Source: a virus. Taken from it: DNA of 17,733 nt. Numbering within the stretch: the first letter of the stretch is position 1; the number at the start of each line of letters is the position of its first letter. The notes under the pieces are model-generated. The model was not told the DNA's origin, ran no database searches, and worked only from the letters and a program-made list of their open reading frames with translations. Both the position numbers and the translations under genes were made by a program. The stretch lies in IMG/VR virus record IMGVR_UViG_3300014292_000013, positions 1 to 17,733 of that record; one strand, written 5' to 3'. This document shows, piece after piece, positions 1,792 to 15,624 of this stretch.

Positions 1792-1800
1792 GTAAACAAT

Positions 1801-1968
1801 ATGGATAATAAATTAAGAGAAGAATTAAGAAGTCAATTATTCAATCAATTAGAACAAGACGAGCGTGAATTAGCTTATCTTGTATCTGAATATGGTTCAA
1901 TTATTGACAGATATTTATTTTTACAAGAGGAAATTGAATCTGTAAGAAGACAAATTCTATCTGTGTAA
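1801..1968 (+). CDS. Small coiled-coil protein (55 aa), hypothetical
   Basis: The ATG lies 9 nt after the adhesin stop. The product is MDNKLREELRSQLFNQLEQDERELAYLVSEYGSIIDRYLFLQEEIESVRRQILSV. A strong terminator follows directly. It is too short for the ORF track, and the RBS is weak. Confidence 0.35.
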   Translation: MDNKLREELRSQLFNQLEQDERELAYLVSEYGSIIDRYLFLQEEIESVRRQILSV

Positions 1969-1981
1969 AATAATAATTAAA

Positions 1982-2017
1982 GGCCCCTACGGGGGTCTTT
2001 TTATTTTTATTTTTTTT
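1982..2017 (+). terminator. Rho-independent terminator
   Basis: The stem GGCCCC/GGGGTC closes a UACG tetraloop (1982-1997). A long T-tract follows (TTTTTATTTTTATTTTTTTT). Confidence 0.8.
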
Positions 2018-2040
2018 ACGGCTTAGTGCCGCATCACAAG

Positions 2041-2058
2041 CCTTGTATTATATTGGTG
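2041..2058 (+). promoter_or_regulatory. Conserved 18-nt promoter-like motif, copy 1 (CCTTGTATTATATTGGTG)
   Basis: One of seven same-strand copies of CCTTGTATAATAWTGGTG. It contains a -10-like TATTAT hexamer. Confidence 0.55.
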
Positions 2059-2083
2059 ATATAATTGAAAGGAGATGCTGGAG

Positions 2084-2152
2084 ATGGCTAAAGTTTTATA
2101 TTCTATTTTATATGCTATTGTTTTTATTATTGTAATTAGTATTTTCCATTAA
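2084..2152 (+). CDS. Very small hydrophobic peptide (22 aa; 25 aa if started at 2075)
   Basis: A GGAG-containing stretch (aaaggagatgctggag) precedes the ATG. The product is MAKVLYSILYAIVFIIVISIFH. It sits directly downstream of motif copy 1. This is a speculative call. Confidence 0.2.
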   Translation: MAKVLYSILYAIVFIIVISIFH

Positions 2153-2178
2153 TATAAGGCTTTGGCTATTTCGGCACG

Positions 2179-2196
2179 CCTTGTATAATAATGGTA
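2179..2196 (+). promoter_or_regulatory. Conserved promoter-like motif, copy 2 (CCTTGTATAATAATGGTA)
   Basis: Perfect TATAAT at 2184-2189. A -35-like TTGGCT lies at 2162-2167. It sits 33 nt upstream of the regulator gene. Confidence 0.6.
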
Positions 2197-2228
2197 GATA
2201 AAAATTTTTAAAAAGAGGTAAAGAAAAA

Positions 2229-2849
2229 GTGGAACAAGAATTAATTTTTTCCAGTAGAAATGGCATTTTACATAAACGTCCTAGGTTAACTAAATTAACA
2301 GAGGCTCGTAAAAAAGCTGGTTATAATAATCAACGAAAAATTGCTAAAGAATTAAAAATTACACAAACAGAATATTGTTCTTATGAGTCTGGTAAAAAAG
2401 AAATGCCAGAACGAATTGCAAAAAGAATTTCTACGCTTTTAAACATGCCAATTGATGAAGTTACTTCTGTTAATTATCAAAATGAAAAATTAACAAAAGA
2501 TGCAACAAAAGTATTGGAAAAAATGTTTAAAATGCTGGGTGAATTAGAATTATGGCAACTTGATGAATTAGATAAAACTGTAACTAATATGAGTCTTATG
2601 AATGGTGTCATGAAGTATAGAAAAATGTTACAAAGAAATCGTAGAAAATTCAGAAAAAATGCTAAGGAATTAAAAGAAATTAAAATTAATAGAAATGATT
2701 TTACGCTTTTATTTTCTGATACTATTGATATGAAAGAAATATCTAACATATCTATTCATTATGAAACAATGTTAACTTTGATTGAATATGGTTTATTGCC
2801 AGAAAATCAATTAAAGGATTTCATTAAATATTTTAATATTATTAAATAA
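2229..2849 (+). CDS. XRE-family helix-turn-helix transcriptional regulator with a C-terminal domain of unknown function
   Basis: The N-terminal segment LTKLTEARKKAGYNNQRKIAKELKITQTEYCSYESGKKEMPERIAKRISTLLNM fits the HTH_XRE pattern. It uses a GTG start preceded by AGAGG. Confidence 0.75.
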   Translation: MEQELIFSSRNGILHKRPRLTKLTEARKKAGYNNQRKIAKELKITQTEYCSYESGKKEMPERIAKRISTLLNMPIDEVTSVNYQNEKLTKDATKVLEKMFKMLGELELWQLDELDKTVTNMSLMNGVMKYRKMLQRNRRKFRKNAKELKEIKINRNDFTLLFSDTIDMKEISNISIHYETMLTLIEYGLLPENQLKDFIKYFNIIK

Positions 2850-2885
2850 CTATATTTTTAAAGTAGACAAAAAGGAGAAAAGAAA

Positions 2886-3050
2886 ATGAACAAAGTATTT
2901 GAATTGGTAGGCCGTGCAGTTATCGGCGGGATTATTGGTTTTGCAGTTGGGTATGTAACCCAAACTGCAATTAACGGTGGTTTGGCTAATAATGTGAAAG
3001 CAGACGTTAAGGGTTTTAAGAAATTGGTCAAAGACACAATTAATGCGTAA
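2886..3050 (+). CDS. Small glycine-zipper membrane protein (54 aa)
   Basis: An AAAGGAG RBS lies 8 nt upstream of the ATG. The product is MNKVFELVGRAVIGGIIGFAVGYVTQTAINGGLANNVKADVKGFKKLVKDTINA. It is below the ORF-track size cut-off. Confidence 0.5.
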   Translation: MNKVFELVGRAVIGGIIGFAVGYVTQTAINGGLANNVKADVKGFKKLVKDTINA

Positions 3051-3056
3051 GCGAAA

Positions 3057-3074
3057 CCTTGTATAATATTGGTG
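3057..3074 (+). promoter_or_regulatory. Conserved promoter-like motif, copy 3 (CCTTGTATAATATTGGTG)
   Basis: Perfect TATAAT at 3062-3067. It sits immediately upstream of the ORF-free structured region. Confidence 0.6.
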
Positions 3075-3567
3075 AAATGCCTTAGTTAAGTTATTCGTCG
3101 CATTGCGGTTTAATTTAATTAAGGCTTTCATATATGTTGAAGGTCGGCATCGAACCTTCTGGGGCAAGCTGAGACTTGCGAATAATTGCGGTATTTGGAG
3201 GAAAGCTAAGTCATAAAGATATGTGAACTCCACTGAAGGCTATATGTAATAGTGTAGTCAAGTGTCCAATGGATTGAAACTCATTAGAGAATATAATATC
3301 CTAAAAGACCGCAACTTCCATTAGCGACGATACTAATGTTGAAGAAGTAGTGGACTACCCTATCGAAAGATAGGGACTATAACTTATATTGGCGGATTGC
3401 GTTGAGGTCGAAATACCTTTCATAATCATAAGTAAATTAATAGTAGACGTAAGAGCTACCATCCGCCAATATTTCATGGGCTTAGTAGAGAAAAAAAACT
3501 GGTGCAACTCCAGAAAAGCCCTGAAATACTATTATCGTAATTTAGGTGTTCCAACGGTTCCGGAATG
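3075..3567 (+). ncRNA. Large structured non-coding RNA candidate (about 0.5 kb), class unknown
   Basis: There is no credible ORF, and the region is visibly richer in G+C than its neighbours. Helices read by eye: 3074-3089/3115-3129 (15 bp); 3139-3144/3154-3159; 3164-3168/3175-3179; a GAAA-tetraloop hairpin at 3358-3364/3369-3375; a 12-bp helix at 3386-3397/3461-3472; and 3478-3483/3516-3521. A nested long-range complementarity pairs 3095-3108 with 3309-3330. Confidence 0.5.
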
Positions 3568-3585
3568 CCTTGTACGATAATGGTG
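3568..3585 (+). promoter_or_regulatory. Conserved promoter-like motif, copy 4 (CCTTGTACGATAATGGTG)
   Basis: Same length and flanks as the other copies. The hexamer is degenerate (TACGAT, or GATAAT shifted by 3). It lies 147 nt upstream of ssb. Confidence 0.45.
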
Positions 3586-3731
3586 AGTGAAATCATTTAG
3601 TCATTCATACCTGTTTGTATAAGGAAATGGTATTGGCAATGATAAAAAGAAGAGTAACTCAAATTTTTTAATTATAAGATAAAAGTTTTAAGTCCTCTAG
3701 TCAGATAGTAGAGGCAAAATAAGGAGTAATT

Positions 3732-4163
3732 ATGAACAACTTTAGTTTAATCAAAGGGTACGTATCCCGCAAAACAACTACTTTCCATCCAGCACGTGAT
3801 GGTAAAAAAGCTGTATTTAGCACAACTATCGCAGTAGCAACTGGCACAGTTGATGGCGAAGGTAAGAAAGTATATAACTGGGTACCAGTTAAATCCTTCG
3901 GTAAAACAGCTGAATTGATGAATGAAAATCTTGTTGGTGGTGATTACACAGAAATCACTGGTCGTTTGGGTATGAACCCACGTTATACCAATAAGAAAGG
4001 CGAAACAGTTTATGAAACTTGTTTCTTGGTAGCAACACAATTCTCTCGTTTGACTCAACGCGAAACTCCAAAAGCAACTGAAGTAGCTCAAGAAGAAGTT
4101 GAAAACTTTGCAGGAGCACCAGAAGTGTTCGGCGAAGAATTAGAAGGTGCAACAATTTTTTAA
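3732..4163 (+). CDS. ssb: Single-stranded DNA-binding protein
   Basis: The OB-fold pattern is present (NNFSLIKGYV..., AVFSTTIAV, WVPVKSFGKTAELMNENLVGGDYTEITGRLGMNPRYTNKKGETVYETCFLVA). The C-terminal tail is acidic and ends in ...EELEGATIF. The RBS is a strong AAGGAG. Confidence 0.75.
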   Translation: MNNFSLIKGYVSRKTTTFHPARDGKKAVFSTTIAVATGTVDGEGKKVYNWVPVKSFGKTAELMNENLVGGDYTEITGRLGMNPRYTNKKGETVYETCFLVATQFSRLTQRETPKATEVAQEEVENFAGAPEVFGEELEGATIF

Positions 4164-4184
4164 TTTAATTTAAACTAACATAAG

Positions 4185-4240
4185 AAAAATCATACATGAA
4201 CCACTGGCGTGAAGAGATGTATGATTTTTCTTTTTTTTGT
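4185..4240 (+). terminator. Rho-independent terminator after ssb
   Basis: The stem AAAATCATACAT/ATGTATGATTTT pairs 4185-4197 with 4217-4229. CTTTTTTTT follows. Confidence 0.7.
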
Positions 4241-4270
4241 TTTTTAACTTGAGTTAAAAAATATTTTTAG

Positions 4271-4299
4271 TTGAAATTAAAAAACAAAAGTGTTATAAC
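4271..4299 (+). promoter_or_regulatory. Sigma70-type promoter (TTGAAA, 17-nt spacer, TGtTATAAC)
   Basis: -35 TTGAAA at 4271-4276. The extended -10 has TG at 4291-4292 and TATAAC at 4294-4299. Confidence 0.5.
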
Positions 4300-4326
4300 A
4301 TTTTTTTAACGAAAGGAATTTTAATT

Positions 4327-4713
4327 ATGAAAGAAAATTATTCATTAGAAGAAATCGTAGAAACATTAGCTAAATTTAAAGAAGTTATGAATTATGTGCG
4401 TCAAAATCATGGCGTATGGGACAGCACTGTACAAGAATGTGATAAAGCATTTGGTGATATTCGTCATTATTGTGAACTACAATATCCTACACAACGTAGA
4501 GATAAAACAAAAGTAGTTCGTTTAATTCATGATTTTTCTGTTAAACGTCGTGAATGTAAAGATTATCTTGAAGTCTTGGCTCCATTATTTGAAAGTAATT
4601 TGGTTGAAGAAAAACAATTGATGAATGTCAATCGTATTATTAATCAAATTAAAAAGAACCAAGAGAAAAATCGTGCGTATAAACCTCGTGTATTAGAAGA
4701 TTTATTTAAGTAA
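4327..4713 (+). CDS. Hypothetical phage protein (128 aa)
   Basis: Long ORF with the RBS context TTAACGAAAGGA 9 nt upstream of the ATG. No family recognised. Confidence 0.7.
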   Translation: MKENYSLEEIVETLAKFKEVMNYVRQNHGVWDSTVQECDKAFGDIRHYCELQYPTQRRDKTKVVRLIHDFSVKRRECKDYLEVLAPLFESNLVEEKQLMNVNRIINQIKKNQEKNRAYKPRVLEDLFK

Positions 4714-4757
4714 TATAAATTTTCGTGTTATTTTTTAATTAGAAAAGAGGTGTTTAT

Positions 4758-4865
4758 ATGAAATTTTTAGTTAATCTATTAAAAAAAGTTGCACCAAAAT
4801 GTATTATGTGCCATAATAAAATAGAATTAGAAATCTTGGAAGCACGTCTTGCTTTAGATGAATAA
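4758..4865 (+). CDS. Small hypothetical protein (35 aa)
   Basis: An AAGAGGTG RBS precedes the ATG. The product is MKFLVNLLKKVAPKCIMCHNKIELEILEARLALDE. Confidence 0.35.
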   Translation: MKFLVNLLKKVAPKCIMCHNKIELEILEARLALDE

Positions 4866-4886
4866 TACGAAAGGACATTTTTTAAA

Positions 4887-5180
4887 ATGGCAGATACATA
4901 TTTTGTAAATGACTACGCTCTTAAAGACGCTGCGGAACTACGCAAAGAAACTGAAGAGCGAATTAAAAAAGCAGTAGAACGTATCGTTAAAATTTTGTAT
5001 AAAGCGATTACAACTGCGGCAGAGAAAAATGAATTTGAAGTTACGAGTACATTAGATTTAAGCTTCGACCATGATTTGGATAGAGCTACAGTTGAAGGTG
5101 TAAAAACAGAATTAATCAATAAAGGTTATACTGTTACTTACGAAACTGAAGACCATAATGTATGGAAAGTGACTTGGTAG
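4887..5180 (+). CDS. Hypothetical phage protein (97 aa)
   Basis: ORF with the RBS ACGAAAGGA. A terminator lies downstream. Confidence 0.7.
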   Translation: MADTYFVNDYALKDAAELRKETEERIKKAVERIVKILYKAITTAAEKNEFEVTSTLDLSFDHDLDRATVEGVKTELINKGYTVTYETEDHNVWKVTW

Positions 5181-5189
5181 TTTTTAATA

Positions 5190-5220
5190 AGCTCGGATAA
5201 TCATTCCGAGCTTTATTTTT
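5190..5220 (+). terminator. Rho-independent terminator
   Basis: An 8-bp stem AGCTCGGA/TCCGAGCT pairs 5190-5197 with 5205-5212. TTATTTTT follows. Confidence 0.75.
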
Positions 5221-5236
5221 ATATGGAGAAAAATCA

Positions 5237-5602
5237 ATGGTAAATGTATTCAAACCAACCGAAGAGGAATGGAATATGGGTGTTGTCGGCATTGAAGATA
5301 TGTACGGCAATAAAGTTTTATTTAATAATATTGTAATGCTATTAGGTCAAGAATATGGTATTTATTTATTAGTTTGTAATGATGACGATGAATATGGTGC
5401 TGCGTTAACAGATGACCCAACTTGTCAAGATAAGGAAAGTCGTATCCACTTTAATGAATTTTTAGATTATGAACATATTAAAGTCGTTGGTACGTATGAT
5501 AAAGATAACAAAGTGTTAATGGGTAAAATTGGTAAAACCGAAAAATGTATTTCTTGGCAAAGTAAAAAACGTCGAAATAAAAATATGAAAGTGAGTGCAT
5601 AA
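5237..5602 (+). CDS. Hypothetical phage protein (121 aa)
   Basis: ORF with a GGAG RBS. No family recognised. Confidence 0.7.
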   Translation: MVNVFKPTEEEWNMGVVGIEDMYGNKVLFNNIVMLLGQEYGIYLLVCNDDDEYGAALTDDPTCQDKESRIHFNEFLDYEHIKVVGTYDKDNKVLMGKIGKTEKCISWQSKKRRNKNMKVSA

Positions 5603-5603
5603 C

Positions 5604-5936
5604 ATGTTATTTTTAAAAAATATGCCAGCTCATGAATTTTTAGATAAATTCTTTAAGCTAGACAATCTAAAATTTGATACTATATATGATGATAAAATTT
5701 ATAATTATAATGTAGCTTCTTACAATGATAAAGAAAAATACGGAAATATTACTGTGTTAAATTTAAGTCTTTTAGAAAAACGAGATGAAAATTCTAACTG
5801 GGCAGATATTCAATATAAATATTTATTTTTAGAATTTTATCTTAATAACGATTTAATTAAATTTAGTGATGATACATCTGACAATAAAACAAAACAAATC
5901 GTTAAAGATTTTGTTGACGCAGTTATTAATGCATAG
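5604..5936 (+). CDS. Hypothetical phage protein (110 aa), possible paralogue of the next gene
   Basis: The ATG at 5604 is preferred over the GTG at 5595, which overlaps the upstream stop. It shares short motifs with 5948..6289 (DIQY, a C-terminal ..VI pattern). Confidence 0.6.
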   Translation: MLFLKNMPAHEFLDKFFKLDNLKFDTIYDDKIYNYNVASYNDKEKYGNITVLNLSLLEKRDENSNWADIQYKYLFLEFYLNNDLIKFSDDTSDNKTKQIVKDFVDAVINA

Positions 5937-5947
5937 AGGAGTAAAAA

Positions 5948-6289
5948 ATGAAAAAACTTATTGAATTAGAACCTGGAGTTTTAAGTGCCGAAAATTTTTT
6001 ATATCAATTACAAACATGTAAAAATGTTGTACTTGAAAATGGATACGATGAAAATTTTTATATTAAAAATGTATATGTTCCTAAAAATTTTAAAGAAGAA
6101 CGTACAATTTTGTTTAGCATAAATTTTTGGCGTAAAGATATACAATATCAAAGCCATGCTGTATATACACCAGTATGTATTGAATATTCAATAAATTTAG
6201 AAACTAATCTAATTTCTTGCACAGATAATAATGCTCCATTAGGTGCAGAATTGTTAAGTAAATTAATCAACGAAGTAATCCTTGTATAA
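5948..6289 (+). CDS. Hypothetical phage protein (113 aa)
   Basis: ORF with an AGAGGAG RBS. Its last codons overlap motif copy 5. Confidence 0.7.
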   Translation: MKKLIELEPGVLSAENFLYQLQTCKNVVLENGYDENFYIKNVYVPKNFKEERTILFSINFWRKDIQYQSHAVYTPVCIEYSINLETNLISCTDNNAPLGAELLSKLINEVILV

Positions 6290-6297
6290 TAGTGGTG
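6280..6297 (+). promoter_or_regulatory. Conserved promoter-like motif, copy 5 (CCTTGTATAATAGTGGTG)
   Basis: TATAAT at 6285-6290. It overlaps the stop codon of the upstream gene and lies 56 nt before the next ATG. Confidence 0.55.
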
Positions 6298-6352
6298 TGT
6301 CATTTCGGCATAGTATTTTTAATTTAATTTATTTGTATAAGGAGTTTTAATT

Positions 6353-6709
6353 ATGATGACTTTAACTTTTAATCACGAAGCAGAAGCTATTGCGATTATG
6401 CATCATATCACACAATTTGCACAAGAAAATAATAATATTGTACAAGCAGAAGAAGATAGTTTTTCTCTTGAATATTTTGTATCTACAGATTCAATCTGTG
6501 TATTCGCAATGAATGGTGAATTCTTGAGCATTGTGATGAGTGTAGTTCGTACTGGCACTAATATTCATTTTGAAACAGATATTGAAGATAATATCGCTGG
6601 CGGTGGTTATCCTCAGCCATTGGTTTATCAGATGACGATGAATTTGATGTCTGAAATTTTAGATGATTTCAATCAAAAAGAGTATATGAATTCTGTTTCT
6701 GAAGTATAA
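6353..6709 (+). CDS. Hypothetical phage protein (118 aa)
   Basis: ORF with an AAGGAG RBS. Confidence 0.7.
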   Translation: MMTLTFNHEAEAIAIMHHITQFAQENNNIVQAEEDSFSLEYFVSTDSICVFAMNGEFLSIVMSVVRTGTNIHFETDIEDNIAGGGYPQPLVYQMTMNLMSEILDDFNQKEYMNSVSEV

Positions 6710-6719
6710 TATTTTTATG

Positions 6720-6770
6720 ATAGCCACGCATGTATTTGCGTGGCTATATAAGTATTATTTTTATTTTTTT
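6720..6770 (+). terminator. Probable terminator
   Basis: An 11-bp stem ATAGCCACGCA/TGCGTGGCTAT pairs 6720-6730 with 6737-6747. T-rich sequence follows, but not immediately. Confidence 0.55.
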
Positions 6771-6788
6771 AAAGAAAGTGTGCAAAAA

Positions 6789-7169
6789 ATGGAATATATC
6801 ATTAGGCATGAATATAGAGATATACATAATGCATTATTAAGAATTTTTTCTGAAATCTTACAAGATAAAATGGAATATACAATTTATTCCTCAAAAACAG
6901 AAAAAAGAAGAAAAGATATTGTTGGCATGGGTATGCGAATGGTAACAGAAAAAGAATTTAGTATAACATTCCATATTAGAGAAAAAACAGATGGAGCTAC
7001 TTGCAATTCAACTATCGGTTGCGAATTAATTATGAAAGAACATGGTCTAGGTGAATTTGCTATTTTCTCTAGTAACAAAGATGAAGCATATACTATTGTT
7101 AATATTTTTGAGTTTTTAACAGAAAGATTCTATCGAGCTCAACTAGATAGAGAATTATTAGGTGAATAA
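6789..7169 (+). CDS. Hypothetical phage protein (126 aa)
   Basis: The ATG at 6789 was chosen because the track start at 6717 lies inside the terminator hairpin. Confidence 0.6.
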   Translation: MEYIIRHEYRDIHNALLRIFSEILQDKMEYTIYSSKTEKRRKDIVGMGMRMVTEKEFSITFHIREKTDGATCNSTIGCELIMKEHGLGEFAIFSSNKDEAYTIVNIFEFLTERFYRAQLDRELLGE

Positions 7170-7170
7170 T

Positions 7171-7347
7171 ATGTTATGTTATAAAGACAGAACGTATTGC
7201 GGAACAGATTGTAAATTGCAAGGCACTTGTAAAGAAAGTTTTGAGTACGCAAAAGAAGAACAAAAACAGCATCCAGATGAATTTGTAAGAAATTTACCAT
7301 TTTCTATTCGGTACAAAAGTGAATGTGAAAATTTTCAAAAAAAATAA
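7171..7347 (+). CDS. Small cysteine-rich protein (58 aa)
   Basis: The ATG lies 1 nt after the upstream stop. The product begins MLCYKDRTYCGTDCKLQGTCKESF...SECENF and carries 6 Cys, so a metal-binding role is possible. Confidence 0.5.
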   Translation: MLCYKDRTYCGTDCKLQGTCKESFEYAKEEQKQHPDEFVRNLPFSIRYKSECENFQKK

Positions 7348-7375
7348 TTGACATATACTATAACTATGTTAAAAT
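7348..7375 (+). promoter_or_regulatory. Strong sigma70-type promoter (TTGACA, 16-nt spacer, TGtTAAAAT)
   Basis: Perfect -35 TTGACA at 7348-7353. Extended -10 with TG at 7367-7368 and TAAAAT at 7370-7375. Confidence 0.7.
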
Positions 7376-7381
7376 ATACAT

Positions 7382-7531
7382 GTGAGTTTTACCTCCTTTC
7401 GTTAATATAACTCACACGTGCGTATAGGGTTCTGCTTTGGTGATAGCAGAAGACTGTGGAACAACAACTTCATAGGTGTTGATTAGACAAGAAGAAGACG
7501 GTATTTGAGAGATGCCGTCTTTTTTCTTGTC
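7382..7531 (+). ncRNA. Small RNA candidate (about 150 nt) with an anti-Shine-Dalgarno hairpin loop
   Basis: It is bracketed by the 7348 promoter and a long terminator hairpin (about 7486-7531) with a T-tract. No ORF is present. Hairpin 7382-7388/7409-7415 presents a 20-nt loop containing ACCTCCTTTCGTTAA. Two further hairpins are CTGCT/AGCAG and CAACA/TGTTG. Confidence 0.55.
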
Positions 7532-7555
7532 TTTTATCCTTTTTTGTGTTATAAT
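7527..7555 (+). promoter_or_regulatory. Sigma70-type promoter (TTGTCT, 17-nt spacer, TGtTATAAT)
   Basis: Extended -10 with TG at 7547-7548 and TATAAT at 7550-7555. -35-like TTGTCT at 7527-7532. It lies upstream of the 7601 gene. Confidence 0.55.
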
Positions 7556-7600
7556 ATATGTATCTTAATTCGATAATATGGTAGAAAAAAGGATAAAATT

Positions 7601-7987
7601 ATGAAAGTTTATGGATATGCAAATAATTTAAAGGGCGAACAAATATACGGTCGCCTTGTCGATAGAAAATTCTTACTTGTAAAAGATGCTACATTGGTTG
7701 AAATTAAACCAGATACATTTCAATCTGAACAAGAAATTCGAGTAAAAGAAAGAAATAAGTTAGTGGCGAAAGCCAATCGCAAGGCTACTTCTGAAATTAA
7801 AAAAATTAATAAAAGTAAAACAAAAAATCTTCAGGAACTAGCGACACCAGAAATGCTTGGTAAATATCTTGCCATGATTATGATGCAATGGGTTCGTGGC
7901 AATAAAATTACTGAAGATGAATATACATATGAATATGAAAAAGAAAAGGCGTTAGCGAATTCTGAGTTTAAGGAGATATTATGTTAA
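7601..7987 (+). CDS. Hypothetical phage protein (128 aa), lysine-rich centre
   Basis: ORF with an AAGGA RBS. Confidence 0.7.
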   Translation: MKVYGYANNLKGEQIYGRLVDRKFLLVKDATLVEIKPDTFQSEQEIRVKERNKLVAKANRKATSEIKKINKSKTKNLQELATPEMLGKYLAMIMMQWVRGNKITEDEYTYEYEKEKALANSEFKEILC

Positions 7988-8721
7988 ATTTTTATTACAA
8001 TGGCGATGAATCAGTTCAAACATACGAAGCGGAATTTACATTAGAAATTAAAAACGACTATTACAAAGGTCATGGTACTGTCGATAAAGATAGCATTAAA
8101 ACTTTATATACTAAATTAATCGAAGATGGCAATTATGATGCCGAATTTAATTTAATTGATATAGAAGAACATGAAGGCTTTACAGTGATTAAATATGAAT
8201 CTACTGATTATATTGACGGTTCTTTCTTATTATTCGATTTAGTTTGTGAAGTGCCTAAAGATGTTTATACATATTTTATTTGTTCTCCTAGTTTTGATTT
8301 TTATTATAAGCATGTTGGTAAAAATTCTTTACCGTTTTCTTCTCGTTATTTAGTCTATACAGCTCATAATGGCAGTTATATTTTGTGTGATGATTATAAA
8401 GAAACCATTGGCAAATTAGAAGAAGTAGCACAACGTATTCTTCACGAAGGTGCTTCGTTTACTAAAGATGCGATTTTAATTTCTAAAATTGATAGTGGCG
8501 ATAATAAAGACTTTAATGACTTATTAGACGATTACAAAACGTATGATGTAATGCGTGAAAATATTAATTTTGCGGCTAAACAAGATAGTCCAGAAGAAAT
8601 CATTAAAATGCTTCGTAGTCAATTTGGCGACAATATGGAAATTGTCTTCATTGATGAAGAAACTGGTAAACGTATTGGTGGTCCAAATAAAGAAAAAAAA
8701 GATAATAAAAAATTATCTTAG
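7981..8721 (+). CDS. Hypothetical acidic phage protein (246 aa)
   Basis: ORF with a strong AAGGAG RBS. Its start overlaps the upstream gene's end. Confidence 0.7.
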   Translation: MLNFYYNGDESVQTYEAEFTLEIKNDYYKGHGTVDKDSIKTLYTKLIEDGNYDAEFNLIDIEEHEGFTVIKYESTDYIDGSFLLFDLVCEVPKDVYTYFICSPSFDFYYKHVGKNSLPFSSRYLVYTAHNGSYILCDDYKETIGKLEEVAQRILHEGASFTKDAILISKIDSGDNKDFNDLLDDYKTYDVMRENINFAAKQDSPEEIIKMLRSQFGDNMEIVFIDEETGKRIGGPNKEKKDNKKLS

Positions 8722-8778
8722 GTAATATAAAGGACGGTAGTTTATTTTAATCTTCCTCCTCCTTTGTATAATATATAA

Positions 8779-8910
8779 TAAAACTACTTGTGTAAAAAAA
8801 AGTGATGAGATATAATGTACATAGAGTATTCTATGTAATACAAAAATCTCCTCATTTTGCACACAAAAAAGATGGTTATTCTGAGCAGCGACAGAATAGC
8901 CATCTTTTTT
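8779..8910 (+). ncRNA. Promoter-hairpin-terminator module: short RNA or transcription-attenuating leader
   Basis: Two promoter candidates are present: TATAAT at 8767-8772, and TTGTGT, 17-nt spacer, TATAAT at 8788-8816. A long imperfect hairpin pairs 8788-8811 with 8846-8866 and has an inner 7-bp hairpin (8818-8824/8831-8837). A 13-bp terminator stem pairs 8871-8883 with 8892-8904 and is followed by TTTTTT. Confidence 0.35.
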
Positions 8911-8935
8911 ATTTATATCAGAAAGGAATTTAAAA

Positions 8936-9118
8936 ATGAGTGAACATATTGGCACTATATTAGCAATTATTTTTGTTGTATTATTTTTGTTAGGGAAATC
9001 ATCTTTAAGATTTTTTAATGATGAACATAAAATTGGGATTCGATATAGTTTTAGATTGTTTTTTGAAGAACCAGATAGCCCACATAGCTTTAAATTTGAA
9101 ATTATATGGAGCAAATAA
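8936..9118 (+). CDS. Small membrane protein (60 aa)
   Basis: GAAAGGA RBS. The N-terminal hydrophobic segment is IGTILAIIFVVLFLLG. Confidence 0.5.
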   Translation: MSEHIGTILAIIFVVLFLLGKSSLRFFNDEHKIGIRYSFRLFFEEPDSPHSFKFEIIWSK

Positions 9119-9121
9119 AAC

Positions 9122-9424
9122 ATGAAAAAGAAATTAATTAAAGTATATATTAGAGACCTACAGTTTGATATCCCAGATGTGTCTTTAGAAAAAATAGAAG
9201 AATTATATAAGCAATTACAATGGTCAGAAGCTAGAGATAATTCTGTACATGAAGTGATTAAAAAAATACAAACTTTACAATCAACAATTGAAATATTAAA
9301 AGAACAAATTCAAGAATTAAATGATAGAAAAATAGAATTAGAAAATTTAGTATATGTAAATGGTGAAATAAAAACATACGCAGATATCTTGTCAGAAATC
9401 GAAAAAGATGCTAAGATTAAATAG
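9122..9424 (+). CDS. Hypothetical coiled-coil protein (100 aa)
   Basis: ORF with heptad-like sequence (IQTLQSTIEILKEQIQELNDRKIELENL). Confidence 0.6.
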   Translation: MKKKLIKVYIRDLQFDIPDVSLEKIEELYKQLQWSEARDNSVHEVIKKIQTLQSTIEILKEQIQELNDRKIELENLVYVNGEIKTYADILSEIEKDAKIK

Positions 9425-9462
9425 TAACTTTTCTCTGATTTTAACGAAAGGATATTTGTAAA

Positions 9463-9861
9463 ATGGAAGATATTATTAACCAACCAAAACATTATACTCA
9501 TGGAGGTATTGAGGTACGTCCATTTATCAATTCTCAGGGTTATAATTTTGATATGGGCAATGTTATTAAATATATTGTGCGTGCAGGTATTAAAACACCA
9601 GATAAGTTAATTGACTTAGAAAAAGCATTAAACTATATCAATGATGAAATTAAAAAAGGCAATAAAAAATTACATTTTGAGCCAACAAGTATTTTCATTT
9701 CTGGCTATGAATTTATTAGAAGCCAACCACATTTAACAGATAACCTTAAAAATGTCATTTCTTTATTATCTAAAGATGAAAAAACAGACTGTATTTTAAT
9801 GGCAGAAGTAATTTCTGCACGAGATTTGTTGCAAGAAGAAATTAACATGTTAAAGATTTAA
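9463..9861 (+). CDS. DUF3310-like phage protein
   Basis: The N-terminal pattern INQPKHYTHGGIEVRPFI...NFDMGNVIKYIVRAG...IDLEKALNYI resembles the conserved phage DUF3310 signature (HY..GIE, GN.IKY..R, DL.KA..Y). The RBS context is TTAACGAAAGGA. Confidence 0.65.
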   Translation: MEDIINQPKHYTHGGIEVRPFINSQGYNFDMGNVIKYIVRAGIKTPDKLIDLEKALNYINDEIKKGNKKLHFEPTSIFISGYEFIRSQPHLTDNLKNVISLLSKDEKTDCILMAEVISARDLLQEEINMLKI

Positions 9862-9920
9862 GGTAATAAACCCATTGAAACGTTTTTTAATTCTCTTAAT
9901 TAAGAAAGGAAAGAACTCCA

Positions 9921-10568
9921 ATGGGTTTTTTACTTGCTGTAAAAAATTTTTTACAAGAAAACTGGCGATTACTCGTCGACTGTCTTAGGTGGCTCATACT
10001 TTGTATTCTTATTATATTGTCTATTTTGTATGTTTTGGATAAGTTTGGTCCACGCAACGAAGTAGATACGAAGCCATCTAAAGTCATTAATGCTGACGGT
10101 ACTGTTAATACAAATAAACATTATCAAGAAGCAACCAAAGTACAAACGAATACAATCGAAAGAACATCTTTCGTATATGTTCCCAAAGAAACACCTCGAG
10201 ATGCAGACGTAGAGTTTAATAATGCTGATAAAAAAGTATTTGTAAAAGTAAATGGTCAGCAACACGAAATTGAAAATAATGTAACTGAAACTCAAAAATT
10301 TGAAAATGGCAAATTAGTCGTAACTCAAAAAGAAGAGTCAGTTATTTCAATCGCCGCTCCTAAGCCAGCTAAAACTTCACTTAGTTTTTATTACGGTGGA
10401 GGTAATAATTATGGTGTAGGTGTTAACTACAATATTTCCAAACATGTAACTTTGAACGGACTATATGTTAATCACAAAGCATATGCCGGTGTAACGGTAC
10501 CTATCGGAAACATGGATAGTAGTTCAAAGAAACAAGATATTTCTAAACAAGAAAAGGAAGTGAAATAA
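9921..10568 (+). CDS. Membrane-anchored protein (215 aa), unknown function
   Basis: N-terminal TM segment WLILCILIILSILYVL. The C-terminal part is rich in Gly and aromatic residues in alternating, beta-like stretches (SLSFYYGGGNNYGVGVNYNISKHVTLNGLYVNHKAYAGVTV). Confidence 0.6.
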   Translation: MGFLLAVKNFLQENWRLLVDCLRWLILCILIILSILYVLDKFGPRNEVDTKPSKVINADGTVNTNKHYQEATKVQTNTIERTSFVYVPKETPRDADVEFNNADKKVFVKVNGQQHEIENNVTETQKFENGKLVVTQKEESVISIAAPKPAKTSLSFYYGGGNNYGVGVNYNISKHVTLNGLYVNHKAYAGVTVPIGNMDSSSKKQDISKQEKEVK

Positions 10569-10569
10569 T

Positions 10570-10779
10570 ATGCCAGAAGGTGCAGGTACTGAAGTACACG
10601 CAGCAGCAGCAACTCCAGTTTTTAACGTAATGTGCAAAGGTCACAAATACATGTTCTCTAGCGATATCGTTCCAAAAGATGATGCTATGCATGTAGTAAA
10701 AGCAACGGATTTGTTGAGCAATACGCTTGAATTGACATTCAAAAATAAAAAATGCGTAAGCGTAGAAATCGTAAAATAA
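10570..10779 (+). CDS. Small hypothetical protein (69 aa), paralogue of the next gene
   Basis: AAGGAAG RBS. The ATG lies 1 nt after the upstream stop. Confidence 0.6.
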   Translation: MPEGAGTEVHAAAATPVFNVMCKGHKYMFSSDIVPKDDAMHVVKATDLLSNTLELTFKNKKCVSVEIVK

Positions 10780-10780
10780 T

Positions 10781-10945
10781 ATGGAATTAAACTACAATAA
10801 CAAAAGGTATTTATTTTCTGAATATATTGAACCAGCAGACACTGGTTTATATACAGCCGTATTAATTGATGGTAACAATGTTCGTTGTGAAATCGTATGG
10901 TTTAACGGCGAACTTCGTGAAATTAACGAACTCGGCAATGAATAA
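10781..10945 (+). CDS. Small hypothetical protein (54 aa)
   Basis: The ATG lies 1 nt after the upstream stop. The product is MELNYNNKRYLFSEYIEPADTGLYTAVLIDGNNVRCEIVWFNGELREINELGNE. Its pattern is similar to 10570..10779 (K.KY.FS..I.P.D). Confidence 0.5.
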   Translation: MELNYNNKRYLFSEYIEPADTGLYTAVLIDGNNVRCEIVWFNGELREINELGNE

Positions 10946-10960
10946 AAATAAATAATAATA

Positions 10961-11020
10961 AAAAGACATGAGTCTGAGCACCTTGTATAATAATGGTGAC
11001 CTCAAACTTGTGTCTTTTTT
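10961..11020 (+). terminator. Long terminator hairpin whose loop is promoter-motif copy 6
   Basis: The arms 10961-10982 and 10995-11020 pair over about 20 bp, with some G-U pairs and small bulges. The 12-nt loop is TTGTATAATAAT. A T-tract lies at 11015-11020. Confidence 0.6.
10981..10998 (+). promoter_or_regulatory. Conserved promoter-like motif, copy 6 (CCTTGTATAATAATGGTG)
   Basis: TATAAT at 10986-10991. A -35-like AAGACA lies 17 nt upstream. Confidence 0.6.
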
Positions 11021-11076
11021 ATTATTTCTTTGGTATAATTGATTATATAAATTTAGGTAGAGAGGAAAAAATAATT

Positions 11077-11355
11077 ATGACCTATACAGGAAAAATGAAT
11101 AAGAGTTTTATTGATGACATTGCAAGTTCTATTAATCGTGTCATTCGTGAAACATCTTTTCGAAGCCAAACAAAATCTAAAAAAAAGAATTTAGATATTA
11201 CATTTAGTTTCAGTGATTTATCTGAGCCAAAAAAAGAATTGTTGTTATTAACAATTCGTAAGATTAAAGATATGAAAGAGGAAGATGTATTATTCTTTAT
11301 TGATTCTATTAATCAATGCGAAAAAGAAAGAGGTACGTACAATGAATATCGTTGA
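11077..11355 (+). CDS. Hypothetical phage protein (92 aa)
   Basis: The ATG at 11077 has an AGAGGA RBS. The track start at 10993 lies inside the promoter/terminator region and was rejected. Confidence 0.6.
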   Translation: MTYTGKMNKSFIDDIASSINRVIRETSFRSQTKSKKKNLDITFSFSDLSEPKKELLLLTIRKIKDMKEEDVLFFIDSINQCEKERGTYNEYR

Positions 11356-11428
11356 ACGAGTGATTCGTAGTTTAGTAACATATTACATTACAGGATTTAT
11401 AATTAGAACATTTAGAAAATTTAAATAA
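11342..11428 (+). CDS. Very small ORF (28 aa), doubtful
   Basis: It overlaps the upstream gene's end. The product is MNIVERVIRSLVTYYITGFIIRTFRKFK. No clear RBS. Confidence 0.2.
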   Translation: MNIVERVIRSLVTYYITGFIIRTFRKFK

Positions 11429-11458
11429 TTATATTAAAAATTTAAGGAGACAAATAAA

Positions 11459-11788
11459 ATGAACAGAGAACGATTAATTAACTTAGCAACAAAATCTATT
11501 AACGTAACAGCAGATGCGATTAATTCTGTTGTGGATTTTACACAAGAAAAATTTAATGAGGCAAAACAAAAAGCAACAGCAAAAGAAGTAGACTTTTCTA
11601 ATGCTACACAAATTCAAAAAGAATTCATTGCAATGATTGCTGAAAATTTACAAGATATTGATGATGCAACAATTATCCAATGTCGTGATATCGTAACGCA
11701 TCAATTAGATTTGAAACATGCGATTATTAAAATTAATGACGACCAAATTACAGTTGAAAATATTGTAGCAGAAAAGGTGAGTAAATAA
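11459..11788 (+). CDS. Hypothetical phage protein (109 aa)
   Basis: Strong AAGGAG RBS. Confidence 0.7.
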   Translation: MNRERLINLATKSINVTADAINSVVDFTQEKFNEAKQKATAKEVDFSNATQIQKEFIAMIAENLQDIDDATIIQCRDIVTHQLDLKHAIIKINDDQITVENIVAEKVSK

Positions 11789-11880
11789 TGATTAGTTTGA
11801 TTTTTTTCGGAATGATAACTGTAGTTATCGGTATTTATGGTGCTAAATTTATTAATAAAATTAGAGGTATCGAAAAATAA
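11788..11880 (+). CDS. Small single-TM peptide (30 aa)
   Basis: TAATG overlaps occur at both ends (11786-11790 and 11878-11882), which suggests translational coupling. The product is MISLIFFGMITVVIGIYGAKFINKIRGIEK. Confidence 0.4.
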   Translation: MISLIFFGMITVVIGIYGAKFINKIRGIEK

Positions 11881-12146
11881 TGACACAAGATATTTTAATT
11901 TTACTTGCAGTAGTAGCCATGTCTTGTATGGCTACTATCTGCTTCATTGTCCACCAAGTATTCGCAACGCGTCGTATGCGTATTGAGTATGATGGTGGTT
12001 ATACAGAAGAAGAAATTGAACAAATTGTAGTAAAAAAATTTAGATTATTAGCTTCTAGTCAATCATTAGAGCCTGGTAATTTTATTTACACTACAACTAC
12101 GAAAGAAACCAATAAAGAACCTAAAACAACAAAAGGGAGAAAATGA
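11880..12146 (+). CDS. Small membrane protein (88 aa)
   Basis: N-terminal TM segment ILILLAVVAMSCMATICFIV. It is coupled to both neighbouring genes. Confidence 0.6.
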   Translation: MTQDILILLAVVAMSCMATICFIVHQVFATRRMRIEYDGGYTEEEIEQIVVKKFRLLASSQSLEPGNFIYTTTTKETNKEPKTTKGRK

Positions 12147-12628
12147 TGTTCAAATATGTAGTTGGAAATATTTTAGATACAGAATGTAAGTATATTCTAA
12201 ATCCAGTTAATTGTGTTGGCACAATGGGTAAAGGGTTAGCTTTACAAATTGCTAAGGCATACCCTGAATCTGTTGAACCATACAAAGAAGATTGCAAAAA
12301 AGATTTATTAAATATTGGTCAATTAACTAGCTTTAAAGCTAAAAATGGTAAAACCATTATTCATTTTCCAACTAAGTATCATTGGAAAAATCCATCTAAA
12401 TATAGTTATATTGAAGCTGGATTAGAAAATTTAGCTTACCACATTAAACATAGTGGTAACGAAACATCATATTTAAGCTTCGCAATTCCTCCACTAGGTT
12501 GTGGATTAGGCGGATTAAATTATGATTTTGTTCATGAATTAATCCAAACTATTTTAAGTAAATTTAAAACTATTACATTCGAATTATATGTGACACAAGA
12601 ATGGTATGATGCACATGTACATTGCTAA
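12143..12628 (+). CDS. Stand-alone macrodomain protein, DarG/TARG1-like ADP-ribosyl hydrolase
   Basis: The motifs NPVNCVGTMGKGLALQ, HFPTKYHWKNPSKYSYIEAGL and IPPLGCGLGGL match the DarG-type macrodomain pattern (VNCVGVMGKGIALQ / NFPTKKHW / PPLGVGNGGL), including the catalytic-loop lysine. At 161 aa it has no C-terminal DarT-binding extension. Confidence 0.85.
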   Translation: MMFKYVVGNILDTECKYILNPVNCVGTMGKGLALQIAKAYPESVEPYKEDCKKDLLNIGQLTSFKAKNGKTIIHFPTKYHWKNPSKYSYIEAGLENLAYHIKHSGNETSYLSFAIPPLGCGLGGLNYDFVHELIQTILSKFKTITFELYVTQEWYDAHVHC

Positions 12629-12703
12629 ATATTCTTTTTAGTATTATAATAACAAAGATAAATAAAATATTTTACATAATTTTAACGAAAAGGAAGATTA
12701 AGC

Positions 12704-13213
12704 ATGAATGAACAAACTCAACAAGAAGAACATATTATTATTGACTTAGATAATTTAGTGTTACCTAGATGTCGATTTGAAATAGTATCTTCTTATAAAG
12801 ACAAAAACATTAATTTACCGACACGCAAAACATCTGGGTCCGCTGGTTATGATATTGAGGCTGCGGAAGATGTTATTATTAAACCACATTCTTCCACTGC
12901 TGTACCTACTGGTATTAAAGCATATATGGACGAATGTTTAGTATTGAAAATTTATATTCGCTCTTCATTGGCATTTAAACGTGGATTGATGCTAACTAAC
13001 TCTACAGGTATTATCGATAGCGATTTCTATAATAATGAAGACAACGAAGGACATATTCTTGTAGGTTTGTATAATACTACAGATAAAGAAATTATGATTA
13101 AGAAAGGAGAACGTATTGCTCAAGGTATTTTCGAAGCCTACATTATAACGGAAAACGACGCAGAACAAGAAAAAGAAGTTCGAACTGGAGGCATTGGTTC
13201 TACCGGGAAATAA
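12704..13213 (+). CDS. dut: dUTP diphosphatase (trimeric dUTPase)
   Basis: The canonical motifs are present: GSAGYDI, RSSLAFKRG, GIIDSDFY, GERIAQ and the C-terminal RTGGIGSTGK. Confidence 0.9.
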   Translation: MNEQTQQEEHIIIDLDNLVLPRCRFEIVSSYKDKNINLPTRKTSGSAGYDIEAAEDVIIKPHSSTAVPTGIKAYMDECLVLKIYIRSSLAFKRGLMLTNSTGIIDSDFYNNEDNEGHILVGLYNTTDKEIMIKKGERIAQGIFEAYIITENDAEQEKEVRTGGIGSTGK

Positions 13214-13231
13214 TACGTTTTATAAATAAAA

Positions 13232-13426
13232 ATGGACTACATTAAATTAATGGGAGATAGCGAAGATTGGACACAAGATATTGTTCAAGACTTCGTTGAC
13301 TCTCATAATAATTCTATGGAATTTTTGCTCAGAGAAATTAATGAAAAAGAATCAGATATGTTATATGAATATTATATTGACCAAATGTATAAGGAATTTC
13401 AACAATCTGGTCAAATTCCATTTTAA
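13232..13426 (+). CDS. Small highly acidic protein (64 aa)
   Basis: ORF with a weak RBS and a D/E-rich sequence. Confidence 0.5.
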   Translation: MDYIKLMGDSEDWTQDIVQDFVDSHNNSMEFLLREINEKESDMLYEYYIDQMYKEFQQSGQIPF

Positions 13427-13445
13427 TTGTTAGAAAGATATAAAT

Positions 13446-13886
13446 ATGAAAATTCAAAATATTTTAGATAGAAAATTTTGGTGTAAACAAAATTTAATTT
13501 CTATTTTAATTGCAATTATTTTCGGTGTTATTTTTGATTTATTAAAAGTTTGGAATACAGTATACGCATATTATTTAATTGGCTTAGTATTCGTATATCA
13601 AATTTTTATCACATATTTAACACATAAAACAAGACAAGAAATTTGTAATATTCTGGATAAAAAGATATGGTATATATCATTATATAATATTGACATCGAA
13701 GATTTAAAATATTATTTAAAAAGCAATGCCACTTTTTGTTTAGTTGTATTTGCTACTATTATCATAGATTTAATTTTATTGAAATTAGATATTGATATGT
13801 TCAATACTATATATATTATCTTTTCAGTATTTTCTACATCTTATTTGTTAGACCAAATTGCAATTAAAAATATTTTAAAGAAATAA
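13446..13886 (+). CDS. Multi-pass membrane protein (146 aa)
   Basis: About four hydrophobic segments (LISILIAIIFGVIFDLL, YYLIGLVFVYQIFITYL, FCLVVFATIIIDLILL, IYIIFSVFSTSYLL). Confidence 0.6.
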   Translation: MKIQNILDRKFWCKQNLISILIAIIFGVIFDLLKVWNTVYAYYLIGLVFVYQIFITYLTHKTRQEICNILDKKIWYISLYNIDIEDLKYYLKSNATFCLVVFATIIIDLILLKLDIDMFNTIYIIFSVFSTSYLLDQIAIKNILKK

Positions 13887-13905
13887 ATAAAGGAAATAGA
13901 TAAAA

Positions 13906-14358
13906 ATGAAACTTACATTTTTTGAAAAAGCCGTATTAGAAAAAGCGTATGAAAATGGATTGCGTTTTTTTATACGTGTAAATGAAAAAGATATTTTATT
14001 TGTTGAAAGAAATCCAAAAGATACAGTACGTTTAGATTCCATCGAAACAATCTTAGATAATATTGATAGCATTATCGAAAAAACAGAATGTATTTCAGAT
14101 TTTGGTGATTTTAAATTTGCTAATATTCAAGATGTTATTTCTATTGAAAAAACTCTTGGTAAAATTGATTGGACTAAAGTTAAAAAAGATACTCTTGTTA
14201 AAGTGCGTTCATTGAATGGTACAGAACATTTCCGTTATCTCTGTCGTAAAATTGATAATGTCCATGGTATCGAAGTATATCCATTTGGCACAACTTCTTT
14301 GACAGCACCTAATGAAGATACAGAAGTATATTACGATTTTGAATTGATAGAAAAATAA
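13906..14358 (+). CDS. Hypothetical phage protein (150 aa)
   Basis: ORF with an AAGGA RBS. Confidence 0.7.
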   Translation: MKLTFFEKAVLEKAYENGLRFFIRVNEKDILFVERNPKDTVRLDSIETILDNIDSIIEKTECISDFGDFKFANIQDVISIEKTLGKIDWTKVKKDTLVKVRSLNGTEHFRYLCRKIDNVHGIEVYPFGTTSLTAPNEDTEVYYDFELIEK

Positions 14359-15532: not shown

Positions 15533-15533
15533 T

Positions 15534-15619: not shown

Positions 15620-15624
15620 TTTAT

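Follow-up and report, generated by a model that had tools for sequence, protein, structure and literature searches.

A predicted small RNA with an open anti-Shine-Dalgarno loop in phage DNA from metagenomes

What does a phage make from a stretch of DNA that runs from a strong promoter to a terminator with no evident gene in between? This question is raised by positions 7348-7531 of IMG/VR virus record IMGVR_UViG_3300014292_000013, of which we analysed positions 1 to 17,733 (17,733 nucleotides (nt), hereafter the window). We find that this unit is very probably a genuine and discrete plus-strand RNA gene of ~145 nt, as judged from its sequence and from the way in which that sequence has been conserved. 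The predicted RNA begins with a hairpin whose open loop carries an anti-Shine-Dalgarno (anti-SD) sequence, and it may act by pairing this loop with the Shine-Dalgarno (SD) regions of messenger RNAs (mRNAs), thereby blocking the start of translation. This mechanism draws on modelled pairing energies and on analogy with known small RNAs, and the chances that it is correct seem to us evenly balanced.

A first-pass annotation, made from the letters of the sequence, had called a near-consensus promoter at the start of the unit, and this is borne out by our analysis: TTGACA (7348-7353) is followed, after a 16-nt spacer, by TGtTAAAAT (7367-7375). This sigma-70-type promoter, P1, ranks first among the 106 promoter-like sites in the window. 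The start of the RNA is predicted at about G7382, at the foot of the first hairpin (H1), and the terminator stem at 7491-7525 ends not only this RNA but also the upstream operon. The ~150 nt bracketed in this way had been described as free of open reading frames (ORFs), and we find only ORFs of at most 23 amino acids, none of them with a ribosome-binding site (RBS). A type I toxin-antitoxin arrangement was also considered, and no small hydrophobic ORF with an RBS was found in the unit. The predicted RNA, which consists of H1, a linker, two further hairpins (H2 and H3) and the terminator, has a fold energy of -51.6 kcal/mol (z = -4.75). In a scan of the whole window against Rfam 15 at gathering score we recovered four transfer RNAs (tRNAs) and nothing else, and a scan of the region with E values up to 10 returned only hairpin-type noise on the terminator.

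The first hairpin is present as the annotation had drawn it, with GTGAGTT (7382-7388) pairing to AACTCAC (7409-7415) around the 20-nt loop UUACCUCCUUUCGUUAAUAU (7389-7408). Taken alone, H1 has z = -3.5, and its loop is wholly unpaired in both the minimum-energy and the centroid folds, with an opening cost of 0.4-0.7 kcal/mol. Ten nt of the loop, at 7391-7400, are identical to what we take to be the 3' tail of a Firmicute-type 16S ribosomal RNA, a comparison that draws on general knowledge of such ends and not on the 16S of this host; ACCTCCTTTC, at the same positions, has no second exact match anywhere in the window. The reverse complement of the loop, AACGAAAGGAGGTAAAA, is found as an RBS in ~40 unrelated IMG/VR viral contigs, where the start codon typically follows it after ~1-9 nt, and when we searched IMG/VR with AACGAAAGGAGGTAAAA for an extended perfect target beyond the window, only generic RBSs and the RNA gene itself were returned. 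As AACGAAAGGAGGTAAAA is a generic RBS, part of the complementarity to phage leaders that we describe below comes free with any anti-RBS sequence. The loop is best described as a generic anti-RBS. The consensus SD-type leader is written as AAAGGAGGU.

We collected the intergenic region from ~40 loci, anchored by the two flanking proteins, and these loci split into two lineages, of which lineage 1 includes the window. A third lineage was sought with both flanking proteins in viral, metagenome and genome collections and in a set of 5.8 billion proteins, and the same two lineages only were recovered. In lineage 1 we distinguish 11 variants by sequence. All of them keep both boxes of P1 (-35 and -10), and the 16-nt spacer is changed at up to half of its positions. 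The 5' two-thirds of the RNA, the first 80 nt among them, are almost invariant and have changed less than the spacer and the flanking DNA; the linker that precedes H2, ACGUGCGUAUAGGG, and H2 itself are invariant in 11/11 variants. In three variants (L024, L050 and L051) the sequence of H3 has been rebuilt, and the terminator stem of the same three carries a compensatory AU to GC change along with wobble changes. The preservation of the promoter boxes, the drift of the spacer, the invariance of the RNA and the compensated terminator are together what one expects where a promoter drives a functional RNA up to a terminator.

In lineage 2 the downstream protein is 55% identical and the flanks of the unit are 66-80% identical at the DNA level, and positions 7311-7519 of the window cannot be aligned to this lineage by blastn. 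The lineage-2 P1 reads TTGACA-17-TATATT. In the L008 type, the hairpin that follows has a different stem, GGUUAUUU/AAAUAACC, with a loop that begins ACCUCCUGUAUUAAAUAAAAU, and it leads directly to the terminator and then to the second promoter; the linker, H2 and H3 are all missing. The predicted lineage-2 RNA is ~95 nt long and has two hairpins, with a CAU 9 nt before CCUCC. The sole RNA sequence that the two lineages have in common is UUUACCUCCU, which is kept in every relative of both, with one inserted A in L023. The survival of UUUACCUCCU and of the overall architecture through replacement of the module is the strongest evidence that the exposed anti-SD is the functional core of the RNA.

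The proposed mechanism would then run as follows. P1 would start the RNA at, or within 1-2 nt of, the 5'-terminal hairpin, and the intrinsic terminator would end it. In low-GC Gram-positive bacteria, RNAs are classically shielded from 5' and 3' decay by a 5'-terminal hairpin and a 3' terminator, and these two elements would make the RNA long-lived. The open loop would pair with the SD region of an mRNA and exclude the 30S subunit, in the manner of the C-rich-seed small RNAs of those bacteria. Because UUUACCUCCU alone is conserved, the anti-SD core would be the primary determinant of this pairing, and strong RBSs in general, those of the host included, would be equally plausible targets. For the lineage of the window, the likeliest phage targets would be the leaders of genes 4327 and 9463, with 12 contiguous base pairs (bp) each, and the leaders of gene 4887 and of the dUTPase gene would be weaker ones. 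Extended pairing between SD and anti-SD is known to matter in Staphylococcus (PMC13009471). The coordinates of the unit, of the leaders with full complementarity and of the elements next to the unit are given in Table 1.

Table 1. Predicted features of the RNA unit, its downstream neighbour and the two leaders with full complementarity to the loop (positions in the window)
Feature	Position	Strand	Remarks
P1 promoter	7348-7375	+	11/12 consensus match plus TG extension
Predicted small RNA, ~145 nt	7382-7525	+	H1, linker, H2, H3, terminator
H1, 5'-terminal hairpin	7381-7416	+	7-8 bp stem; U7381-A7416 is an optional extra pair
Anti-Shine-Dalgarno core ACCUCCUUUC	7391-7400	+	conserved part is UUUACCUCCU
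Loop segment UCCUUUCGUUAA	7394-7405	+	complement of the 12-mer in two leaders
H2 hairpin	7423-7458	+	inner stem UUCUGCU/AGCAGAA, 7430-7436 and 7445-7451
H3, small variable hairpin	7462-7481	+	predicted fold
Intrinsic terminator	7486-7531, core stem 7491-7525	+	16 pairs, then T-run
P2 promoter, gene 7601 and following genes	7527-7555	+	TTGTCT-17-TGtTATAAT
Long hairpin	7532-7598	+	7532-7557 (UUUUAUCCUUUUUU...) pairs with 7573-7598 (...AAAAAAGGAUAAAA)
Candidate target, gene 4327 leader	4306-4317	+	TTAACGAAAGGA; 12/12 complementary
Candidate target, DUF3310 gene 9463 leader	9441-9452	+	TTAACGAAAGGA; 12/12 complementary

Which messages in the window could such a loop reach? The first-pass annotation had pointed to a 12-mer shared by the leaders of several genes, and the matches themselves are confirmed. 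TTAACGAAAGGA has exact occurrences in two leaders, those of gene 4327 and the DUF3310 gene 9463, and one at 7394-7405 on the minus strand. These are three copies, against 0.18 expected by chance, and 0/200 shuffles reach three; the two plus-strand copies end 9 nt before the ATG at 4327 and 10 nt before the ATG at 9463. The dUTPase leader carries the same sequence with one extra A (TTAACGAAAAGGA, 12682-12694, plus strand), and the leader of gene 4887 shares the 9-mer ACGAAAGGA (4867-4875, plus strand), both as previously described. When the body of the RNA (7382-7490) is compared with the plus strand of the window, complementarities of at least 10 nt are found at the 4327 and 9463 start regions only. 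The 4327 leader ranks first by net energy, that is, duplex energy minus opening costs (-12.0 kcal/mol). The 9463 leader forms a duplex of -16 to -17 kcal/mol, with a net energy of ~-12 kcal/mol when pairing is confined to the 12-mer, and next comes the 4887 leader (net -9.9 kcal/mol), which together with the dUTPase leader (-12.6 kcal/mol) makes a weaker candidate target. With the SD sequences of gene 7601 and of gene 7172, which lies upstream, the loop is predicted to pair weakly (-8.8 and -8.4 kcal/mol, respectively).

The motif shared by these leaders is longer than an SD sequence, reading TTTTAACGAAAGGA at 4303-4317 and 9438-9452 and, with the extra A, TTTTAACGAAAAGGA at 12679-12694 in front of the dUTPase gene; it could represent a common leader cassette or the binding site of some other factor. 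The GGATATT stretch of the leader, which does not pair with the RNA, is as invariant as the remainder of the core, and so the conservation of the leader core needs no small RNA as its explanation. We also compared the leaders across relatives. The 12-mer of the 4327 leader is kept in the lineage-1 orthologs examined, and the lineage-2 ortholog has a different leader, UUUAAGGAGGAUU, without the 12-mer. The DUF3310-leader copy of the motif is invariant in both lineages irrespective of the small RNA; in several lineage-1 phages this leader reads CTAACGAAAGGA (11/12), and the loop shows no change that would compensate for it. The dUTPase leader drifts within lineage 1 and is degenerate in L050 (CTAATGAAAAGGA). 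On modelled pairing, genes 4327 and 9463 are tentative and somewhat doubtful candidates for physiological targets in the lineage of the window.

The annotation had interpreted the unit as a trans-acting small RNA for a defined set of RBSs. One part of this interpretation stands, namely a discrete and conserved unit with an open loop, to which the two leaders offer the best start regions in the window; the other part does not, since the target set is not kept in lineage 2. Several further observations weigh against the regulon or against the pairing mechanism more generally. Complementarity between the loop and the 12-mer had been expected to persist in related phages, and it fails: the lineage-2 DUF3310 leader keeps TTAACGAAAGGA, but the loop there is ACCUCCUGUAUUAAAUAAAAU. 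The DUF3310 start region is outside the eight best for the lineage-2 loop, and when the lineage-2 start regions were scored against that loop, none was above background. Within the window, raw duplex energies similar to those of the candidate leaders are also reached at sites that are not starts, such as 10368-10389 (-16.7 kcal/mol) and 3375 (-16.4 kcal/mol). H1 is invariant within lineage 1 and hence lacks the support of within-lineage covariation, and the L009 type, which is the commonest variant of lineage 2, carries two mismatches in the hairpin stem and is predicted to fold differently. Finally, the invariant linker and H2 have no role in an anti-SD model. The 12-bp matches do exist, and pairing would follow from an encounter of the two RNAs, but they look like an addition made in lineage 1 or, alternatively, like sequences of shared origin through inverted duplication of an RBS segment, and they do not look like the conserved purpose of the loop. 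The claim of a specific regulon is weakened by these results.

An explanation that needs no pairing at all is suggested by what lies immediately downstream. The terminator ends at 7525 and the -35 box of a second promoter, P2, begins at 7527; P2 is conserved in both lineages, and in lineage 2 it reads TTTACT ... TGCTACAAT. The long hairpin that overlaps P2 has as its 3' arm (7573-7598) the SD region of gene 7601, and its 5' arm includes the -35 box and spacer of P2. The -10 box of P2 (7550-7555) is inside the hairpin, which implies that the RBS of gene 7601 is hidden in read-through RNA only. Folding is in keeping with this arrangement: the read-through leader of gene 7601 has -16.5 kcal/mol (z = -2.7), against -3.1 kcal/mol (z = +2.0) for the leader initiated at P2. 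The same RBS-hiding design recurs in lineage 2 (L008:4233-4298, z = -3.5), and in L050:6366-6432 the two arms stay paired through wobble changes, with a weaker fold (z = -1.3). In the T4 genes e, soc and I-TevI, an SD-hiding hairpin is relieved by an internal promoter, and the element at 7532-7598 conforms to this arrangement, with the SD covered in the long transcript and an open leader made from the internal promoter.

The unit might accordingly be a transcriptional device, which would insulate the 7601 operon and modulate P2 by occlusion when P1 fires, its terminator and the RBS-hiding hairpin stopping read-through expression; the RNA would be a by-product and its loop would have no function in trans. 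The close spacing of terminator and P2 and the conserved hairpin, which hides the SD of gene 7601 in read-through RNA only, are what such a device would call for, and so is the operator-like palindrome with 13-bp arms that overlaps the lineage-2 P1. However, the terminator suffices for insulation, which makes a conserved strong promoter and a conserved loop sequence superfluous. Conservation is higher in the 5' two-thirds of the RNA than in either the promoter spacer or the DNA on both sides, and UUUACCUCCU outlives complete replacement of the module. For these reasons we consider this explanation unlikely. The palindrome itself (L008:4104-4135, AATTAATATATAA-AA-TTATATATTAATT) extends over both the spacer and the -10 box of P1 in lineage 2 and is flanked by two copies of TTGACAAT. 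Lineage 1 lacks this palindrome, which could serve as an operator.

The conservation of the anti-SD core alone between the lineages also fits a second alternative, in which this RNA and other RNAs with C-rich loops, made in bulk early in infection, would mimic the tail of 16S rRNA globally and mask strong, extended SDs. Translation would be shifted off host or early messages, phage genes with short SDs would escape, and the 12-mer matches would be incidental. The ten nt that match the Firmicute-type 16S tail, as read directly against general knowledge of such tails, agree with such a role, as does the generic strong RBS that forms the complement of the loop. There are, moreover, several more conserved C-rich loops downstream of the strongest promoters, and a full GGAGG is present in only 2-3/32 start regions examined in the window. 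The difficulty lies in stoichiometry, since masking on this scale would require one small RNA to titrate much of the mRNA of the cell, and the invariance of UUUCGUUAA across lineage 1 is left unexplained. We regard global mimicry by this RNA as decidedly unlikely, and it appears improbable that the window unit forms, with two further predicted RNAs (~8823-8915 and ~17088-17300), a set of cell-wide ribosome-tail mimics that mask strong SDs and let the short-SD genes of the phage escape. In such a set, every RNA would be made from one of the strongest host-type promoters of the phage and would display loops that are C-rich or resemble the 16S tail, and the phage would thereby use RNA to take over or re-time translation.

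The other C-rich non-coding elements of the window are as follows. A second unit, at 8788-8916, has a promoter (TTGTGT-17-TATAAT, 8788-8816) and a terminator (8865-8910) and would yield an RNA of ~90 nt; the segment left unpaired ahead of the terminator reads AAUCUCCUCAUUUUG (CUCCUC) in lineage 1 and ACAAACCCCCAC (CCCCC) in lineage 2. Just upstream of it, the 3' untranslated region of gene 7981 (8744-8788) contains a conserved (CCU)n run, CUUCCUCCUCCUUUG, which is one unit longer in lineage 2 and lies between the conserved arms GGUAGUUU and AAACUACU. We rejected the run (8751-8765) as a hairpin loop, its fold being no better than shuffles. At 17052-17305, the second-best promoter of the window, which is near-consensus (TTGACA-18-TATTAT, 17052-17081), drives an ORF-free multi-hairpin RNA (~17088-17300), whose 5'-terminal hairpin displays GUUUCUCCCCCCUA, with a different stem in each lineage (L053:4125-4380 and L057:4125-4400). 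Downstream in this RNA are ACUCCUUUC and then UUUUAAC(CUCCCU)GUUAAAA, with CUCCCU enclosed by the two arms, and the RNA leads into more tRNA genes. With its several C-rich loops it resembles RNAIII of Staphylococcus aureus in layout. A third strong promoter, TTGAGA-18-TATAAT (17583-17612), leads to a tRNA-Leu(UAG) gene that is cut by the end of the window and complete in L053:4660-4746; each of the three top-scoring promoters in the window drives a non-coding RNA. A weak tRNA-like match at 17456-17523 (34 bits, against a gathering cut-off of 29 bits) was seen in a permissive scan only. Some 120 nt at 17306-17425 (…ACTTATAACCGTGGGGCACACGGGGATAGCC…GGGTGCCAGA) are missing from the otherwise 100%-identical L053, a comparison that suggests a small insertion or mobile element.

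On the plus strand, 10/15 clusters of C-rich motifs are intergenic, and intergenic DNA makes up 24% of the window. C-rich motifs are placed in hairpin loops with stems of at least 8 bp in 55% of cases against 32% of random positions, a gap that is too small for so loose a criterion and that we do not use as evidence, and there is no excess at lower thresholds (17/22 against 86% with 6 bp, and 14/22 against 57% with 7 bp). Anti-SD-type sequences thus recur in this phage, in cis and, by implication, in trans.

A third possibility takes up the part of the RNA for which the pairing mechanism has no use. The RNA could be structured or bound by a protein, with the linker and H2 as its functional part and with the anti-SD-like loop incidental or a relic of an inverted RBS. 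ACGUGCGUAUAGGG and H2, invariant throughout lineage 1, have no predicted pairing partner in the window, which is what this possibility would lead one to expect, but lineage 2 drops the linker, H2 and H3 and yet keeps the anti-SD hairpin, and the RNA matches no Rfam family; we find it quite improbable. Barely credible is a function of the minus strand, on which the loop reads as a perfect, strong RBS (AAAGGAGGTAAAA) followed by an ATG and a tiny ORF, whether as an RNA for a mini-ORF or as what is left of the start of a dead gene. In its favour, an ATG follows GGAGG after 9-10 nt in both the window type and lineage 2, opening ORFs of 5 and 7 codons (MYILT here and MKIVNHN in lineage 2, each with a stop), and of the two strands the minus strand forms the more stable hairpin. 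Against it, L024, L050 and L051 have lost the ATG (CACATATAT, CACATATTA) with the remainder kept, the two peptides are unrelated, a minus-strand promoter scoring at least 9/12 is absent within reach, the T-run of the terminator is effective on the plus strand only and all credible genes of the window are on the plus strand. A minus-strand mini-ORF or CreT-like RNA was rejected on the loss of the ATG in these three lineage-1 variants and the lack of relationship between the peptides.

What kind of phage carries the unit? The window has a G+C content of 27-37%, and its recognisable genes include those for a YadA-like protein, a helix-turn-helix regulator, SSB, a DUF3310 protein, a macro-domain/phosphatase-like protein, dUTPase, an endolysin-like protein and four tRNAs. 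Among the isolated phages of INPHARED we found no nucleotide match for the region or for the whole window, and by protein only distant cyanophage matches to the endolysin-like gene and none for SSB. The relatives come from metagenomes only, with assemblies of human-associated origin, and their contigs cluster at 225-235 kb in independent assemblies. This suggests a complete phage genome of ~235 kb and indicates that the window most likely belongs to an uncultivated phage of that size rather than to a small prophage. One relative, L001, is on a 208-kb contig binned as 'uncultured Gemella', and this, the sole pointer to a host, may also reflect a mis-binned phage. A TnpB/IS605-OrfB gene (Pfam OrfB_IS605 and a Cas12f-like TNB domain) is inserted in L015:4420-5685, between the terminator of the second RNA and the next gene, and a close TnpB relative is found in L001:1-1500, just upstream of the gene 7601 homolog. 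The intergenic regions around the RNA units appear to be insertion sites.

To our knowledge, the regulatory RNAs of phages of low-GC hosts, and of very large phages above all, are almost uncharted. The unit offers a well-delimited and conserved candidate with a clear seed, and with it come two or three sister elements and a conserved device that would tie translation to the choice of promoter. If the RNA blocks RBSs, the phage would be using a standard small-RNA mechanism of Gram-positive bacteria to time its own genes or those of its host; if the broader mimicry of the 16S tail were true, this would be a new kind of translational takeover. The proposed pairing mechanism is the expected one, and its setting is poorly explored. 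The unit would also represent a compact natural anti-RBS module, in which a hairpin that stabilises the 5' end and an open loop that carries the seed are combined with a strong terminator.

How does this RNA compare with known systems? The C-rich loops of RsaE/RoxS and of S. aureus RNAIII pair with G-rich SD regions of several mRNAs, and the accessible C-rich motif in a loop is shared with the RNA described here. However, the seed here is an exact anti-SD, CCUCC with 16S-like flanks, and not UCCC or CCCC; homology in sequence or structure is absent in Rfam scans, and the unit is borne by a phage. Phages themselves encode RNAs whose loops pair with the ribosome-binding regions of phage messages, as in the c4 antisense RNA of P1/P7, sar of P22 and OOP of lambda. 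Similar to c4, the loop of the RNA in the window is complementary to phage leaders elsewhere in the genome. In contrast, c4 is processed from a longer transcript and uses two loops on one operon, there is no homology between the two RNAs, and the complementarity to leaders is lost here in the sister lineage. In T4, the RegB endoribonuclease acts on the GGAG SD sequences of a class of messages and reshapes translation during infection; the likeness is one of function only, since RegB is a protein nuclease and not a base-pairing RNA.

The layout of the unit, a strong promoter giving a short RNA that ends at a nearby terminator just upstream of phage genes, is shared with the 6S RNA from PR' of lambda and with StxS, the by-product RNA of Stx phages, which is itself described as a regulatory small RNA (PMC7547250). 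Unlike in those systems, the downstream genes have their own P2 and any read-through RNA would stay untranslated, and anti-termination is therefore not what the unit is evidently for. Most neighbouring proteins had no family match in general scans, and no search dedicated to a Q-like antiterminator was made.

The closest look-alike of the lineage-2 RNA is found among the CiaR-dependent csRNAs of Streptococcus (CcnA-E), in which an anti-SD sequence is left unpaired and for which a block of the regions where translation starts has been proposed (PMC3091779). Shared with these are the short RNA, the strong promoter, the 5' stem-loop, the terminator and the unpaired anti-SD, which in the csRNAs often extends to an anti-AUG (PMC3091779). 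In lineage 1 the anti-AUG (CAU) lies upstream of the likely RNA start and probably outside the RNA, and it is lost in L024, L050 and L051. The two also differ in that P1 is a plain TTGACA promoter with the CiaR box TTTAAG-N5-TTTAAG absent upstream, that the anti-SD is inside the loop of the first hairpin rather than between two stem-loops, and that the unit is encoded by a large phage and has no Rfam match. The small RNA of the window matches no curated Rfam family, RsaE and other Gram-positive small RNAs included, and we interpret it as a new phage-borne family among the small RNAs with an anti-SD seed.

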